Assembly (NCBI GenBank): GCA_021821305.1
Contig: JAKACP010000001.1
Location: forward strand, 748,421-812,420
Reading direction: 5' to 3'
From: a bacterium
Lineage (GTDB): Bacteria; Patescibacteriota; Minisyncoccia; Moranbacterales; UBA1568
DNA: 64,000 nt
The notes under the pieces are model-generated. The model saw nothing but the letters and a program-made list of their open reading frames with translations, made no database searches and was not told the DNA's origin. A program made the translations under genes and the position numbers. Of this stretch, positions 23,142 through 59,474 are shown one piece after another (within the stretch, counting starts at the first letter, position 1; the number at the start of each line of letters is the position of its first letter).

Positions 23142-24416
23142 CTACGCTCGGAATTTGTCGATGAAAGTGAGGGCGCTTCCCGATTTGCTCCCGCGACCGG
23201 TCCGACCGATACGGTGGATATAGTCCTCGTAGGTCGCCGGCAGATCGTAGTTGATGACATGCGTCACGCCATCGATATCGAGGCCGCGCGCCGCCACATC
23301 GGTCGCGACGAGCACGCTGACCTTCCCCGCGCGGAAGCCGTCGAGCGCGCGCTTGCGCTGACCCTGTGACAGATCGCCATGGATGGCGTCGGCCTGGAAG
23401 CCGCGGATCTTGAGCGTCTTCGCGAGCTTGGCCGCGCCGTACTTGGTACGCAGGAAGATGATCGACTTCTCGAACTCGGGCTTGAGGAGGAGATCATGGA
23501 GTATCTCGACCTTCTTCTCCCGGCTCTCGGAATAGATGACGTCCTGGTCGACGTTCTCGGAGGTGGCACGGGACGACGGGATGGAGATCATGATCGGGTC
23601 CTGGAGGAACTTCATCGCGAGGTCCTTGGCTCCGCGCTCGAGCGTAGCCGAAAAGAAGAGCGACTGCCGCTTCTCGGGAAGCAGGGAGAGGAGATGTCGG
23701 ATTTCCTTGACGAATCCCATGTCGAGCATGCGGTCCACCTCATCGAGGACGACATTGCTGTAATCGGGCATCATGAGGAACTTCCGATCGATCAGGTCCT
23801 TGACCCGTCCCGGGGTACCGATGACGAAGTTCGGCGAGCGACGCACGTCGCGCGCCTGCTTATCGAGATGCACGCCGCCGATCGTGAGCACGGAGGCAAG
23901 GTTCATCCCGCGCGCGAATTCCTTGAATTCCTCCTCGATCTGGACGGCGAGTTCACGCGTCGGGACGAGGATGATCGCGCGTTCCTTGGGATGGAGGAGC
24001 GCCTTGTTGATGAGCGGAATGAGGAACGCGGCGGTCTTGCCGGTTCCGGTATTGGCGATACCGATGAGGTCGCGTCCCTTCAGGATATGCGGGATCGCAC
24101 CGTCCTGGATCGGGGTCGGATGCTCGTAGTTCCGCCGTGCGATGGACGCCTTGAGGCGTTCCTCTATATGGAAATCGGCGAAGCGATGCTCCGGATGGAA
24201 AGCGACGGTCTCGGTCTTCTCTATCGCCTTGCGGACGAACATGGAGACGTCGAGGCCAAGCTGACCCTTCTGCTTCTTGGCACCGCGCTTCATGTCGCGG
24301 AACGTGAACGGATTGTTCCCCTTCTTGACCGGACCGGTGTATTTCTTCGGCCCGCGCGACCCGCCGAATCCCCCGGATCCGGTCTTTTTTGCTCCCGTAT
24401 AAGATTTCTTGTACAT
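23142..24416 (-). CDS. DEAD-box ATP-dependent RNA helicase with basic G/K-rich N-terminal extension
   Basis: Q-motif (PTPIQ), NTGTGKTAAF, VPTRELA, DEVD, SAT and HRIGRTGR motifs. Confidence 0.9.
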   Translation of the reverse strand: MYKKSYTGAKKTGSGGFGGSRGPKKYTGPVKKGNNPFTFRDMKRGAKKQKGQLGLDVSMFVRKAIEKTETVAFHPEHRFADFHIEERLKASIARRNYEHPTPIQDGAIPHILKGRDLIGIANTGTGKTAAFLIPLINKALLHPKERAIILVPTRELAVQIEEEFKEFARGMNLASVLTIGGVHLDKQARDVRRSPNFVIGTPGRVKDLIDRKFLMMPDYSNVVLDEVDRMLDMGFVKEIRHLLSLLPEKRQSLFFSATLERGAKDLAMKFLQDPIMISIPSSRATSENVDQDVIYSESREKKVEILHDLLLKPEFEKSIIFLRTKYGAAKLAKTLKIRGFQADAIHGDLSQGQRKRALDGFRAGKVSVLVATDVAARGLDIDGVTHVINYDLPATYEDYIHRIGRTGRGSKSGSALTFIDKFRA

Positions 24417-36116: not shown

Positions 36117-37091
36117 CTATAAGCTCGCTTTGCACTCGAGCGCCTTGGAAAGATTCGCAAGATTCTCGCGCATCACGGAGAAATAATCCTCTCCTCGGGC
36201 GACAGCTTCGGGAGACAGCCCCTCGAGCGGATCGAAGACGAGCGTCTCAGCTCCGATCTCGCGTGCAAGCGTCTCCGACACCTTCGGCGAGACGAGCGTC
36301 TCGAAGAAAATATACCGTATATTCTCCTTTTTCGCGAGGTCGACAAGATCCGCCATCCGGCCGGCCGACGGTTCCATCTCGGGAGAAAGACCGGAGATCG
36401 AATGCGCGGTGAACCCGTAGCGTTCCGAAAGGTAGGCGAACGCGTTGTGCGAGGCGATCACCTCATGCCGGACGCAGGACGAAAGCGTCGTCCGATACTC
36501 CGCATCAAGCGCCGCAAGTCCGGACATCGCTTCCGCCGCCGACGACTCGTACGCTTCCGTGTGGGCCGGATATTTCCCGGAAAGCGCGTCTCGGATCGAA
36601 CCGACGATGCCCGCGGCGAACACCGGATCGAGCCAGAAGTGCGGGTCGTATGTCCCGCGTGCCTCTTCCGTTTCCTCTTCGTGTTCCTCCTTCACGAGAA
36701 GTGAGACCGACCGGGACGCGTCGATGACGATCACGCCCTTCCCCCGGAGCGACCGGGCGAGATTCTCCGCCCACGGATCCATGCCGGCCCCGTTCATGAC
36801 GAAGATATCCGCCTGTTCGATCGAGATGAGGTCCCGGGGCGTCGGTTCATACTCGTGCGGCTCGATGCCCGAGGGGACGATCGACGATACCTCCACGGCC
36901 TCACCGCCGGCCATGCGGGAAAATTCCGCGAGCGGATAGAATGTCGCGATGATCCGCGGCTTCCCCTCGCCCGCTATCCCGTTTTCCGTCACGATCGGCG
37001 CGTCGCTCCGAAAGGAGAAGACGCTCAGGGCGACGAGCGCGATCACGCCCAGGGCGATGAGGATGATTTTTTTCATGTCGGTCATATTCAT
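36117..37091 (-). CDS. znuA: metal-binding periplasmic/lipoprotein solute-binding protein (ZnuA/TroA family, His/Glu-rich loop)
   Basis: Signal peptide. TroA-like fold motifs (ATFYPLAEF, EPHEYEPTPRD, DPHFWLDP). Acidic EEHEEETEE loop. Confidence 0.85.
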   Translation of the reverse strand: MNMTDMKKIILIALGVIALVALSVFSFRSDAPIVTENGIAGEGKPRIIATFYPLAEFSRMAGGEAVEVSSIVPSGIEPHEYEPTPRDLISIEQADIFVMNGAGMDPWAENLARSLRGKGVIVIDASRSVSLLVKEEHEEETEEARGTYDPHFWLDPVFAAGIVGSIRDALSGKYPAHTEAYESSAAEAMSGLAALDAEYRTTLSSCVRHEVIASHNAFAYLSERYGFTAHSISGLSPEMEPSAGRMADLVDLAKKENIRYIFFETLVSPKVSETLAREIGAETLVFDPLEGLSPEAVARGEDYFSVMRENLANLSKALECKASL

Positions 37092-37101
37092 ATGATTCTC
37101 G

Positions 37102-37524
37102 TCACTGACAGCTTCCGCACAATCCGAAAAATTCGAGCGAATGGTCGAGAACGCGGAATCCTTCTTTTTTCTCGATCCTCCGTTCCTCGCATTCCCACGA
37201 CTCCTCCTTCACCGCGACATCCCGGACCGTGCCGCAATCGACGCAGACGAGATGGTGGTGGTGCGGCCCGGCGAGCTCATAGAGCGCCACATCGTTGCGG
37301 AGCGTGAGTTCGGACACGTACCCGGCGGTCTTCAGGAACTCGATTTCGCGATACACCGTCGTCTTGTTGAAACTCCGCGGACCGGACGCGAGGCGCCGCT
37401 CGATATCCGGCACCGAAAGAGGGGACTGCGCCGTTTCGAGCGTCCGAAGAAGCGCCTCCCGGGCCGCCGATCGGCGGAAACCATTCGTTTTCAATTCATC
37501 GAGTATCCGTTTCGTCGTTTCCAT
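37102..37524 (-). CDS. zur: Fur-family metalloregulator, probably Zur
   Basis: Fur-family DNA-binding domain, HHHH and CxxC...CxxC motifs. First gene of the zur-znuACB operon. Start at METTKRIL (37524). Confidence 0.85.
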   Translation of the reverse strand: METTKRILDELKTNGFRRSAAREALLRTLETAQSPLSVPDIERRLASGPRSFNKTTVYREIEFLKTAGYVSELTLRNDVALYELAGPHHHHLVCVDCGTVRDVAVKEESWECEERRIEKKEGFRVLDHSLEFFGLCGSCQ

Positions 37525-56947: not shown

Positions 56948-57130
56948 GAGCCGGTCTAAAATCTCATGTCTTGGGAAAAGTCACTGATTTCGAGCGAAAA
57001 TCTTGAAAAGTGAGGAGGACTATCATGATAATCCGACGAGCTTTGAAAGGTTTGCAGCCGAAATCAGGGACTTTTACCAGACAAGCGAAGTTTTTTCCTT
57101 TACAAATGCGGTGAGATTTTAGACAGGCTC
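56948..57130. mobile_element. MITE-like element: 183 bp, 19-bp terminal inverted repeats (18/19 match), flanked by TAA/TAA, carrying SD + 29-codon ORF
   Basis: Left TIR gagccggtctaaaatctca (56948-56966). Right TIR tgagattttagacaggctc (57112-57130). TAA at 56945-47 and 57131-33. GAGGAGG-N6-ATG at 57012-57027, ORF 57025-57114 (MIIRRALKGLQPKSGTFTRQAKFFPLQMR). Confidence 0.6.
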
Positions 57131-57133
57131 TAA

Positions 57134-57165
57134 GAAAAAAACCCGTTCTCTATCGAGAACGGGTT
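57134..57165 (-). terminator. Rho-independent terminator for the 57186..57566 gene
   Basis: 11-bp stem aacccgttctc / gagaacgggtt with tatc loop, followed on the minus strand by T7. Confidence 0.65.
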
Positions 57166-57185
57166 CATGATTTCCGCCGCCACAT

Positions 57186-57566
57186 TCAGGAGGCGATTTT
57201 TATCTCCCGCATGAAGCTGTCCCATCGGGAGGAGCCTTTCTCACGGAATCGGACCGCCGTATAGAAACTGGCGACGCCGTCCCCCGGGATGAAGAGGCAT
57301 GGGTACGCTCCCATCTTCGGGCTTTCGAGACGGAGCATGTCCCCTGACTCGCTGTATGGGATATCTTCCTGCCAAAGGAAGCGTTTGACGCGCTCCGCGA
57401 TGTCCTCGGCGGTGCGCCACGGGAACTCGATCCGATACTCGATGATGCCCGCGGCCCGCATGATCACCTTGCGTACCCCTGGCAGGAGCGTTATCTCGCG
57501 GATTCCCAGTACGAATCGGGCGAATCGGGCGATCGTTTCGGAAAAACGTTTCGGAAAAGCCTTCAT
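57186..57566 (-). CDS. hypothetical protein (126 aa)
   Basis: ORF with downstream intrinsic terminator. No family recognised. Confidence 0.45.
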   Translation of the reverse strand: MKAFPKRFSETIARFARFVLGIREITLLPGVRKVIMRAAGIIEYRIEFPWRTAEDIAERVKRFLWQEDIPYSESGDMLRLESPKMGAYPCLFIPGDGVASFYTAVRFREKGSSRWDSFMREIKIAS

Positions 57567-57640
57567 GATGGTACTCCTTTCAAAAGAACTCTACCCCAAG
57601 AAAAGCACCGGGAAGGCCATCTGTCAAACCTCCATGAAAT

Positions 57641-57669
57641 TTGACATTGCATAGTGGTTGGAGTAGATT
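57641..57669 (+). promoter_or_regulatory. promoter TTGACA-17-TAGATT
   Basis: ttgaca at 57641-46, tagatt at 57664-69. The ATG of a 13-codon micro-ORF begins 8 nt after the -10 (leaderless). Confidence 0.55.
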
Positions 57670-57676
57670 GTACTCA

Positions 57677-57718
57677 ATGGAAAAGATCACCTCACATCCG
57701 AAGTGTCCGAAAGCGTGA
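57677..57718 (+). CDS. leaderless 13-codon micro-ORF (MEKITSHPKCPKA), candidate leader peptide
   Basis: Starts at the predicted TSS. The stop codon abuts an intrinsic terminator. 37 nt further is the SD of the 57783 gene. Confidence 0.3.
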   Translation: MEKITSHPKCPKA

Positions 57719-57745
57719 AACCCGACGTCGAGTCGGGTTTTTTCT
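57718..57745 (+). terminator. intrinsic terminator / attenuator (aaacccgac-gtcga-gtcgggttt + T6)
   Basis: 9-bp stem and T-run directly after the micro-ORF and before the 57783 gene. Confidence 0.6.
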
Positions 57746-57782
57746 TGTTCATTTCCAACCTGCCACCGAAAGGAGAATCATC

Positions 57783-58046
57783 ATGAACGCAACCGTCGCC
57801 TCCCTGTTCCACCGGGACGAGGATATCCCGCTTTGCCCACGGATGGTCGGACTCACCCGATCGGATCCCAAGGCATACCTCTGTGACATACCGGCCGATC
57901 TGCGCAAGCAGTTTCTCGGAAACACCCCGTGCTCCGCCCATGCGGGATGTGTCCCGAGAGAACGGGACCCCGAAGCCGTGCAGAACGCACAGCTCGATGG
58001 GGTCTATCGGATGTACCACCTTCGTACCCCGCACGGAACGAAGTGA
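57783..58046 (+). CDS. small Cys-rich hypothetical protein (87 aa, four Cys)
   Basis: AAAGGAG SD. C-x16-C-x19-C-x5-C pattern. Terminator follows at ~58050-58085. Confidence 0.55.
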   Translation: MNATVASLFHRDEDIPLCPRMVGLTRSDPKAYLCDIPADLRKQFLGNTPCSAHAGCVPRERDPEAVQNAQLDGVYRMYHLRTPHGTK

Positions 58047-58126
58047 AAGCCCCATCGGACAGAACTGTCCGGGGGCCTTTTTTTCTTTCCCGGCCACGAC
58101 GCACGATCCCGGAGCTCCGGAACGTA

Positions 58127-59383
58127 TCACGCCAGAAAACCGACCCGCTCCCTCACCTGCCGCATCTTGTCGCTTGCGACGGCGCGGGCCTTTTCTGCGC
58201 CGGCACGGAGGACGCTCATCGCCTCCTCGTCGGAGATACTGGACATCTTCGCCTGGAAACCAGCAAGAAACGACGCGACGACTTCGGCCAAGTCGCGCTT
58301 GAAATCGGCATACCCCTTCCCCGCATACAGGGAAACGATCTCCTCCGGCGTCTTCCCGTCGAGGAGCGAATAGATGGTGATGAGATTCCTGAGCGCGGGC
58401 TTGTCATCCTGATAGGCGATTTCGGTCCCGCTGTCCGTCACGGCTTTCATGATCTTCTTTCTCGCCTGCTCGGGATCGTCGGAGAGCGCGATGTAGTTGT
58501 ACTCGCTCGCCGCGGATTTGGACATCTTCTTGGTCGGGTCGTCGAGCCCCATGATCCGTGCGCCTTCTTTCATCACGCGCGGCTCGGGCACGACAAACGT
58601 CTCGCCGAAGCGGTCATTGAACCGCCGCGCGAGCGTACGGGTCAGCTCCACGTGCTGGACCTGATCGTCCCCCACTGGCACGACCGCCGCACCATAGAGC
58701 AGGATATCCGCCGCCATGAGCACGGGGTAGTCGAAGAGCCCAACGCCGATAGTTTCCCGCTGATCTTTGTATAGATCCTCCATCTTTACAAAGAGTGAAA
58801 CAATGGAACCTAAAGCCTGCATCGAACTCGTATATTGTTTTCTAAAATTCCCTTCATGGACAGACAAATCTAACAAAATAGAAGCGCCATTATCTGAATT
58901 TTTTGTCTCTAGCCACTCCCTAAGCTTAGAGTAGGATTCTTCCACTTTTTGATACAATCTATCATTCTCTCCTCTGGCAGAATTCAAACTATCTACCGAA
59001 GATTTTATAAACTCGTCTTTATCTCTTCGAAGAGAACTAAGCCCCGCCTTATCCTTAAACTGCGTCATCTTCTCAAGGTCTCCGAGGCGTGCCACGGTAT
59101 TGAGTATCCACATGAGCTCGGTATGCTCCGGGACATGCGATTGGACGAAGAGCGTCGCCTTGGACGGATCTATCCCCGCGGCGAGGTAAACCTTCGCGAT
59201 CTCGAGCGTCTTCCTGCGAAGTTCGGCCGGATCCTGAGGCACGGTGATCGCGTGGAGGTCGACCACGGAAAAGAACGCCTCACACTCGTCCTGGAGCGGG
59301 ATCCACTGCCGGATGGCGCCGAGATAGTTGCCGAGATGGAGGTTGCCCGAGGGCTGGATACCGGAAAACAGTCGCTTGTTCAT
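58127..59383 (-). CDS. trpS: tryptophan--tRNA ligase (TrpRS) carrying a ~100-aa low-GC in-frame insertion
   Basis: HLGNYLGA (HIGH), KMSKS, MTQFKDK...LFDYPVLMAADILLY. About 100 extra residues between FKDKAG and LFDYP are encoded by DNA of much lower GC (about 58750-59045). Extended -10 TGCTACAAT upstream. Confidence 0.85.
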   Translation of the reverse strand: MNKRLFSGIQPSGNLHLGNYLGAIRQWIPLQDECEAFFSVVDLHAITVPQDPAELRRKTLEIAKVYLAAGIDPSKATLFVQSHVPEHTELMWILNTVARLGDLEKMTQFKDKAGLSSLRRDKDEFIKSSVDSLNSARGENDRLYQKVEESYSKLREWLETKNSDNGASILLDLSVHEGNFRKQYTSSMQALGSIVSLFVKMEDLYKDQRETIGVGLFDYPVLMAADILLYGAAVVPVGDDQVQHVELTRTLARRFNDRFGETFVVPEPRVMKEGARIMGLDDPTKKMSKSAASEYNYIALSDDPEQARKKIMKAVTDSGTEIAYQDDKPALRNLITIYSLLDGKTPEEIVSLYAGKGYADFKRDLAEVVASFLAGFQAKMSSISDEEAMSVLRAGAEKARAVASDKMRQVRERVGFLA

Positions 59384-59474
59384 AGGAAAAACTGAGTAAT
59401 TCGCTTTCATTGTAGCATAAAAAGAAAAAAGGCGCTCCGATGTTTCGGAACGCCCTCGAGGCGGGACAGGAGGA

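Follow-up and report, generated by a model that had tools for sequence, protein, structure and literature searches.

This study analysed a promoter-proximal element in a 64,000-nucleotide stretch of bacterial DNA (contig JAKACP010000001.1 of assembly GCA_021821305.1, positions 748,421 to 812,420; hereafter the window, in whose own numbering the positions below are given). At this element, a promoter-like sequence runs directly onto the ATG of a 13-codon open reading frame (ORF), the stop codon of this micro-ORF overlaps the stem of an intrinsic terminator, and a gene for an 87-aa Cys-rich protein follows. To our knowledge, almost nothing is known of regulation in candidate-phyla-radiation bacteria, which are uncultivated and encode few regulators. 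The predicted element is compact (~110 nt), and its features, together with those of the downstream gene, are as follows (conservation refers to the eight loci introduced in the next section):

57641-57646, plus strand: -35 hexamer TTGACA (promoter scan), invariant as TTTGACA in 8/8 loci
57664-57669, plus strand: -10 hexamer TAGATT (promoter scan), 17-nt spacer from the -35 hexamer
57677-57718, plus strand: putatively leaderless micro-ORF of 13 codons plus TGA, MEKITSHPKCPKA (ATG 57677-57679, stop TGA 57716-57718)
57717-57743, plus strand: intrinsic terminator (stem of 10 bp, loop of 5 nt, U6), which is the sole conserved helix and has compensatory pairs
57744-57763, plus strand: conserved post-terminator block CTTGTTCATTTCCAACCTGC, ~20 nt, consensus TTCTkGyTCrTT
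57770-57776, plus strand: Shine-Dalgarno (SD) sequence AAGGAGA of the 87-aa gene, AGGA invariant in eight loci
57783-58046, plus strand: gene for the 87-aa orphan Cys-rich protein, the candidate regulated gene (Cys18, Cys34, Cys50, Cys56)
58049-58084, plus strand: terminator of the 87-aa gene (stem 58049-58076 plus T7; dG -18.8 kcal/mol), found in relatives too

Conservation of the element across related loci

Nine loci were compared, of which eight are distinct and include upstream DNA and one is truncated, the relatives being obtained only through protein look-ups in Logan and ENA assemblies. These relatives derive from SRR13958301, SRR24144931, SRR22388301, SRR21707647, SRR26425183 and ERZ19568239. 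A gapped DNA pattern gave 0 matches and a protein alignment search 0 confirmed matches against GTDB species representative contigs, and an 18-mer search of JGI metagenome contigs returned 93 loci that were all attributed to chance by blastn. All loci are syntenic, with PGM/PMM followed by the small Cys protein and then by a convergent TrpRS. The identity of the downstream protein ranges from 35 to 85% across the related loci, and the architecture is kept even where identity falls to 35-42%. The element is single-copy and linked to the 87-aa gene in 8/8 loci; a second copy was found neither in the window (motif search and covariance model) nor in the fetched loci (covariance model).

A preliminary description of this DNA had reported a promoter, TTGACA-17-TAGATT, leading onto the ATG of the micro-ORF, and this promoter is indeed present at 57641-57669 and conserved in 8/8 loci. 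The -10 hexamer occurs as TAGATT, TAAATT, TACAGT, TAGAGT or TATCCT, with positions 1, 2 and 6 (T, A and the final T) invariant. The sequence of the 17-nt spacer differs among the eight loci, as does that of the stretch after the -10 hexamer (gtactca, ggattca, gaaacca, ggaacca, ggacccg, aacgaca and gacgaca); the distance from the -10 hexamer to the ATG is exactly 7 nt in 8/8 loci. Because this distance is constant, the transcription start site (TSS) is predicted at 57676 or 57677, that is, 1 nt before the ATG or at it. A consensus scan of the 3 kb around the locus found 2 promoter-like sites against 1.3 expected, and the match, as a sequence prediction, is by itself within chance; its conservation in the eight loci is what raises it above chance. 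Between 44 and 64 kb of the window the scan found 16 sites against 5.5 expected, and the genome clearly uses TTGACA-type promoters. No promoter-like site was found by the consensus scan between the terminator and the SD of the 87-aa gene; therefore, this gene is predicted to depend on read-through.

Leaderless translation appears plausible in this genome, because a Fur-family gene (PF01475, E = 1.7e-22; 37560-37102, minus strand) starts 6-7 nt after a -10 hexamer. Its promoter is TTTACA-18-TATAGT, its ATG is at 37524, and the gene itself appears to be leaderless. It begins ATGGAAACGACG, and its ATGGAAACG opening also opens five of the eight micro-ORFs. A gene for a ZnuA/TroA-like solute-binding protein (36117-37091) comes after it. 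Strong SDs are found at ordinary genes in the window, such as AAAGGAGGG in front of the LysM/SLT gene.

The 13-codon ORF of the preliminary description is present, its ATG lying at 57677 rather than at ~57678 as had been implied there. Start, frame, approximate length and the placement of the stop within the terminator are kept in 8/8 loci, so the micro-ORF itself proved to be conserved in relatives. The ATG is invariant. Six loci have an ORF of 13 codons, one has 15 and another 16 (39, 45 or 48 nt from ATG to stop), and the stop is TGA or TAA. Three indels were inferred in the codon alignment, all multiples of three (one between His7 and AAAGCG, one an extra TCG codon before the stop, and one a GTT/TTT difference between loci L099 and L100); in the same loci, the untranslated stretch from the terminator to the SD and start contains 1-nt indels. 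At L102, 13/42 ORF bases differ, but ATG, frame and stop are retained. If the changes were placed at random, all three would be kept with a probability of 0.067 for L102, 0.35 for L001 and 0.53 for L003, the range for clades other than L102 being 0.23-0.53; the product of the roughly independent terms is a nominal probability of order 10^-3, which is suggestive only. The frame-1 stop is essentially the sole stop codon of the leader in any frame. Its identity switches between TGA and TAA, yet its overlap with the stem base is never lost, including in L099 and L100, whose stem sequence is different; in the window, G57717 and A57718 are both the last two bases of the stop and the first two of the stem, and this overlap is kept in 8/8 loci.

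The encoded peptide is poorly conserved. The relatives encode MKTITSHPKCPKA, METITSHLKRTKA (two loci), METITSHLKHTKA, MSTDTAHPKFSQA, METRKIHFRKFSKAS and METRKIHFKKVFSKAS, and the only invariant positions are Met1, His7 (CAT) and the penultimate Ala codon, which lies in an invariant AAGCGT. In peptides such as MEKITSHPKCPKA, MSTDTAHPKFSQA and METRKIHFRKFSKAS no residue recurs and no run of codons for a sensed amino acid is seen, a single His7 being invariant, which agrees with the earlier remark that the peptide does not point to a known amino-acid attenuator. Conservation of its single Cys codon had been raised as a possibility and was not found, the position being occupied by Cys, Arg, His, Phe or Lys.

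The terminator that had been placed at the stop codon is present with its T6, its stem having 10 pairs, including a basal G-U, instead of the 9 first described. The stem (57717-57726 with 57732-57741) is formed by GAAACCCGAC and GTCGGGTTTT around a GTCGA loop, with T6 at 57738-57743 and a hairpin dG of -15.5 kcal/mol; across the loci the stem is 9-10 bp, followed by U6-7, and dG is -12 to -15.5 kcal/mol. RNAalifold on the eight leaders identified the terminator as the sole conserved helix, 97.5% of its cells being paired (pair count over the alignment), and two of its pairs are compensatory in L099 and L100 (C-G to A-U and A-U to C-G). The same eight-locus RNAalifold analysis found no conserved structure in the 40 nt 5' of the terminator, as would be expected for a translated segment. 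An alternative pairing acting as an antiterminator, which had been suggested as a thing to look for, was neither found nor conserved (minimum free energy and constrained folds of three leaders, RNAalifold of eight); the alternatives returned by constrained folding, at -4.8 to -7.4 kcal/mol, are not common between loci. Rfam 15 gave no match to the element, and in the whole window only tRNAs were matched at the gathering score; with E up to 10, the region 57500-58200 gave only terminator-like chance matches with E of 0.2 or worse.

Beyond the terminator, the SD and start of the 87-aa gene were found as anticipated and at a slightly different distance, with the ATG at 57783 lying ~39 nt past the T-run, not 37, and the SD core GGAG (57772-57775) ~28 nt past it. 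Within the conserved post-terminator block, GTTCAT (57747-57752) is able to pair with the start-codon region ATGAAC (57783-57788). This GUUCAU x AUGRAY helix has 91.7% of its cells paired, with one-sided wobble-compatible changes only and no double compensatory change, and it lies outside the footprint of a ribosome at the micro-ORF stop codon; a second, translational layer of control through this pairing is possible. Separately, the motif GAUCACCUC, which we take to equal the 16S 3' tail, was considered as an anti-SD mimic. This candidate was ruled out: the motif cannot pair with the downstream GGAG SD, it is missing from L099, L100 and L102, and complementary sites are not enriched in the window.

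Proposed mechanism and alternatives

The reading favoured here is that of a ribosome-mediated transcription attenuator on a leaderless leader ORF, operating by direct ribosome occlusion of the terminator 5' arm; from the comparison of sequences, its probability is put at roughly 0.55. The start site, the translation of the ORF, the occlusion and the direction of the effect are the parts of this model that we infer. The sigma-70-type promoter would start transcription at, or 1 nt before, the AUG, and a 70S ribosome loading on the 5'-terminal AUG would follow RNA polymerase across 13 codons. This ribosome would then rest on the stop codon while the polymerase, ~30 nt ahead, makes the 3' arm and the U-tract. 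The terminating ribosome would cover the whole 5' arm (57717-57726), from 57716 to ~57728, the hairpin would be blocked, and the polymerase would read through into the 87-aa Cys-rich gene. If the ORF is untranslated or the ribosome lags, the hairpin would form, transcription would stop at ~57743-57748, and an RNA of ~67-70 nt would be released. The ribosome itself would thus be the antiterminator, as at pyrBI, with no antiterminator structure required.

A ribosome with a stop codon in its A site protects ~12 nt further 3'. Because of this protection, and because the last two stop bases are the first two stem bases, the 5' arm is predicted to be fully covered. When the polymerase has reached the end of the U-tract, it should be ~33-35 nt away from the P-site codon (57713-57715). 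A ribosome and a polymerase in collision can hardly come closer than this, suggesting that the ORF is about as long as possible. Since no antiterminator was found, the mechanism, if ribosome-mediated, must be direct ribosome occlusion. In an engineered case, termination at tR2 fell from ~90% to below 10% once a stop codon had been placed 5 bp before this terminator, an effect that required translation, and full termination needed >27 nt (PMC4824070).

Attenuation by a leader peptide and an independent small RNA (sRNA) of ~70 nt had both been put forward in the preliminary description. Conservation of the ORF, the absence of an internal promoter and the conserved segment from terminator to SD favour a translated leader acting in cis, and the earlier interpretation is partly supported by these sequence comparisons. 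The classical trp-type geometry, on the other hand, did not hold, because no antiterminator pairing was found.

Several points weigh against the occlusion model. The ORF shows no codon periodicity, with 6, 5 and 5 variable sites at codon positions 1, 2 and 3, and its changes are mostly non-synonymous; therefore, selection on a peptide is unsupported, and the conserved entity seems to be the act, start and end of translation rather than the peptide product. The ATG and T[GA]A could be conserved for reasons at the RNA or DNA level, an A-rich 5' flank of a terminator readily gives TAA or TGA, and the comparison spans few lineages, which form three deep groups and are in part closely related. The model also leaves unexplained the invariant AAGCGT before the stop, the CAT at codon 7 and the 20-nt post-terminator block. 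Additionally, a terminator that lies within ~100 nt of the beginning of a coding region is reported to evade the ribosome as a rule, except when the polymerase pauses (PMC4824070). A conserved pause signal was not found among the loci: the window has a G-10/Y-1/G+1 match, which both L099 and L102 lack, and U4-U6 runs upstream occur only in L099 and L100, with none in the window group. Because early terminators escape in this way and no conserved pause signal accompanies this one, the default state is probably to terminate, and the element would report the speed of ribosome initiation and elongation relative to that of the polymerase. Candidate inputs could be the capacity for 70S/leaderless initiation, NTP-dependent polymerase speed, RF2/RF1 activity at the stop, and His-tRNA at codon 7. 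Finally, two other promoter-proximal terminators in the window come without a convincing ORF; therefore, a ribosome-independent mechanism exists, or is at least possible, in this genome.

These two terminators, one of which is conserved in relatives, also fit an explanation in which the leader is an untranslated cis-regulatory sequence, the terminator is conditional under a trans-acting factor, and the ORF is incidental. Either a general elongation factor or an RNA-binding protein, perhaps the product of the 87-aa gene, could play this part, and it would recognise the single-stranded conserved motifs 5' AUGGAAAC, CAU and AAGCGU. The third codon positions found among the invariant nucleotides are in keeping with such a leader, as are the missing periodicity and the conservation of the post-terminator block. 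However, it leaves unexplained the indels in multiples of three, the constant 7-nt spacing and the retention of the stop at the stem base; there is no conserved structure among the eight leaders to act as a binding hairpin or aptamer and no Rfam match, and ~40 nt is too short for most riboswitch aptamers. An untranslated leader is for these reasons regarded as unlikely.

An independent or dual-function sRNA of ~67-70 nt could instead act in trans, with the 87-aa gene expressed by incidental read-through only. Such an RNA would have its own strong promoter and strong terminator, and its 5' part is both unstructured and conserved, resembling the seed of an sRNA; RNAs derived from attenuators are able to act in trans, rnTrpL being one example (PMC6614838). 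Conservation extends past the terminator to the SD, however, and the 87-aa gene is without a promoter of its own. The single-copy element is moreover strictly tied to this gene in eight loci, the putative seed varies (13/42 nt in L102), and no complementary targets are enriched in the window. We consider an sRNA function quite improbable, and a terminated RNA of ~67 nt would anyway be released as a by-product. A constitutively leaky terminator or 5' structural element, giving low fixed expression or protection from RNase J and sensing nothing, is regarded as very improbable: the geometry does recur at three of ~ten strong promoters in the window and RNase J is encoded nearby, but a stabiliser needs no U-tract, yet U6-7 is invariant, and a fixed-level device explains neither the maintained ORF frame nor the stop/stem overlap.

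If the occlusion attenuator is correct, a conserved attenuator would need only RNA polymerase and a ribosome, with no antiterminator, SD or codon run. It would be among the smallest ribosome-dependent switches described, and its existence would reveal a way in which such cells can tie a gene to their translational status. A broader, speculative and rather doubtful reading is that promoter-proximal intrinsic terminators form a general, factor-poor control layer in this reduced-genome, Patescibacteria-like lineage, of which the element would be the minimal ribosome-sensing form with the terminating ribosome as sole antiterminator. In that case, the expression of an orphan metal- or disulfide-type protein would read out leaderless (70S) translation capacity or release-factor activity, not an amino acid.

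The Cys-rich gene and other features of the window

The 87-aa, four-Cys protein with its own terminator was correctly described beforehand (57783-58046, with the terminator at 58049-58076 plus T7). In its family all four Cys residues (C18, C34, C50, C56) are invariant, and position 53 holds either His or Cys (CSA[HC]xGC[VL]PR), an alternation that would be expected for a metal ligand. The family motif reads PLC..x15..YxCD[IV]P..R..G..CSA[HC]xGC[VL]PR, and the protein is, judging from this pattern, under selection. The family is small: a word-indexed search of 5.8 billion clusters gave 4 clusters, a profile search brought the total to 9, and an exhaustive hidden Markov model scan of a 1.84-billion-protein library gave 3 representatives. 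The protein has no match in Pfam or NCBIfam, and Foldseek found no PDB match to its fold below E = 7; its AlphaFold pLDDT was 46 with 4 sequences and 62 with 9. The analysis flags an orphan family of 9 clusters as belonging to a regulated gene, hence probably functional. The sole sequence match was a weak one between C34-x21-C56 and the Cys-containing middle repeats of Helicobacter CagY, and it was not taken as homology: the summed E-value is 2.3e-5, but each repeat alone gives about 10 or higher. An N-terminally extended ORF of 130 aa in the frame of the 87-aa gene (GTG 57654) was likewise ruled out, 1-nt indels in the relatives breaking the frame.

The gene 5' of the element (57186-57566, 126 aa) lies on the opposite strand, so the terminator does not end an upstream gene in the window. 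This role was ruled out here because of the divergent gene, a secondary role of this kind being possible in L100. At that locus (960-1080), the -35 hexamer of the leader begins 2 nt past the PGM stop with no other terminator between, and the leader terminator may also end PGM transcripts; in transcripts reading in from PGM, the micro-ORF would be internal and without an SD. The 126-aa protein has no family match and is missing from the two most distant loci (L099 and L100), and the 5' region of its gene (57567-57630) is strongly conserved in close relatives (GATACTCCTTTTCAAAAGAAC...AAGAAAAGCA.CGGGA). The segment of ~170 nt between PGM and the 126-aa gene (57003-57166) is not present in L001. 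It bears a promoter-like site, TTGAAA-18-GATAAT, and a strong SD, GAGGAGG, with a 29-codon ORF (ATG 57026, MIIRRALKGLQPKSGTFTRQAKFFPLQMR); the hairpin at 57139-57166 is the terminator of the minus-strand 126-aa gene. On the other side, TrpRS (58127-59410, minus strand) has 427 aa against 327-387 aa in the relatives. Its extra segment coincides with a stretch of low GC at 58750-59050 (0.375-0.435 vs ~0.6 in the flanks), which suggests a lineage-specific insertion.

Including the micro-ORF element, three promoter-proximal terminators occur in the 64 kb. The second precedes a DEAD-box helicase gene (23142-24416), in the region 24525-24436 of the minus strand, where a strong promoter, TTGACA-17-(TG)TATAGT, is followed by an intrinsic terminator (24460-24442 plus T6) ~30 nt past the predicted TSS. 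L104 (1400-1500), a relative with 69% identity, retains both the motif GGTATCTTYTTTCATC and the hairpin, and L105 (1378-1460) likewise has a promoter-proximal terminator. The named homologues closest to the window's helicase are MAG proteins of Candidatus Moranbacteria, Moraniibacteriota and 'Patescibacteria group', with identities of 69% at most; the window contains no rRNA, and its source is probably a deep-branching, Patescibacteria-like bacterium with a reduced genome. In the window, a 7-codon ORF, MVSFFIY, ends 2 nt before the stem; this micro-ORF was not robust, the ATG in L104 lying only 3 nt after the -10 hexamer, and the helicase leader may be a second attenuator of a different type. 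The third (54504-54425, minus strand) has the promoter TTGACA-17-(TG)cTAAAGT and, after ~12 nt, a 12-bp hairpin plus T8; a gene for a secreted Gly/Ala/Ser-rich small protein (ATG 54303) begins ~110 nt further on, and no leader ORF is evident. A different arrangement was seen at 60019-59900 (minus strand), where TTGACG-17-TATAAT is followed after exactly 7 nt by the ATG of a 26-codon ORF whose TGA overlaps the next ATG (ATGA). The promoter at 60019-59991 was ruled out as that of a second leaderless upstream ORF, since L001 and L101 have ACG and 4-5 nt indels, and a GCGCCCCAYGCGC motif is conserved in this leader instead of the ORF.

Comparison with known systems

By analogy, the element would work most like pyrBI (pyrL) of Escherichia coli, in which the leader ORF reaches the terminator and a close-following ribosome blocks the hairpin without an antiterminator (PMC5021804, PMC4824070). 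Tight ribosome-polymerase coupling over the pyrBI leader peptide prevents the terminator from forming (PMC5021804). The differences lie in the ORF, the pausing and the target: the 44-codon pyrL begins behind an SD and continues through its terminator, whereas the micro-ORF is putatively leaderless and ends after 13-16 codons at the base of the stem; no equivalent of the U-rich, UTP-sensitive pause sites of pyrL is apparent in the window group; and the gene downstream has no connection with pyrimidine synthesis. The engineered stop-proximal terminators of Li et al. 2016 also resemble the element, with a stop 0-5 nt from the stem and translation-dependent suppression of termination (PMC4824070). 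Those constructs are synthetic and placed behind a long SD-led gene, whereas the element is natural, conserved and <70 nt from its predicted TSS.

Leaderless leader peptides have been described in other bacteria. In Deinococcus deserti, 14 of them were predicted to control transcription attenuation, with the TSS at or 1 nt before the AUG of an ORF of ~10-14 codons (PMC4007540), a layout that the predicted TSS would reproduce here. For Corynebacterium glutamicum, PMC3890552 describes small leader peptides within the 5' untranslated regions of trpE, leuA, ilvB and aroF, in a passage that does not call them leaderless. In both systems the cognate amino acid is abundant in the peptide, and the genes behind it are those for aminoacyl-tRNA synthetases or biosynthesis, whereas no residue is enriched in the micro-ORF and the putative target is an orphan Cys-rich protein. 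The mycobacterial polycysteine attenuators share the use of a leaderless short ORF as a cis sensor for downstream genes (bioRxiv 10.1101/834739). They are translational, however, with a ribosome stalled in a Cys tract opening a duplex that sequesters the ribosome-binding site, whereas the element has an intrinsic terminator and no Cys tract, its single Cys not being conserved.

With trp/his-type attenuators the element shares the order of a promoter-proximal short ORF, an intrinsic terminator and a structural gene. It differs from them in having no 2:3 antiterminator and no regulatory codon run, and the predicted polarity is the opposite, translation to the stop here favouring read-through. 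Among the best-ranked papers from a library search on leader peptides or transcription attenuation in the candidate phyla radiation, none mentions that group, which is not proof of novelty. Overall, the element appears close in mechanism to known attenuators, and its novelty would lie in a leaderless ORF whose stop codon overlaps the terminator stem, dispensing with both an antiterminator and a run of regulatory codons.

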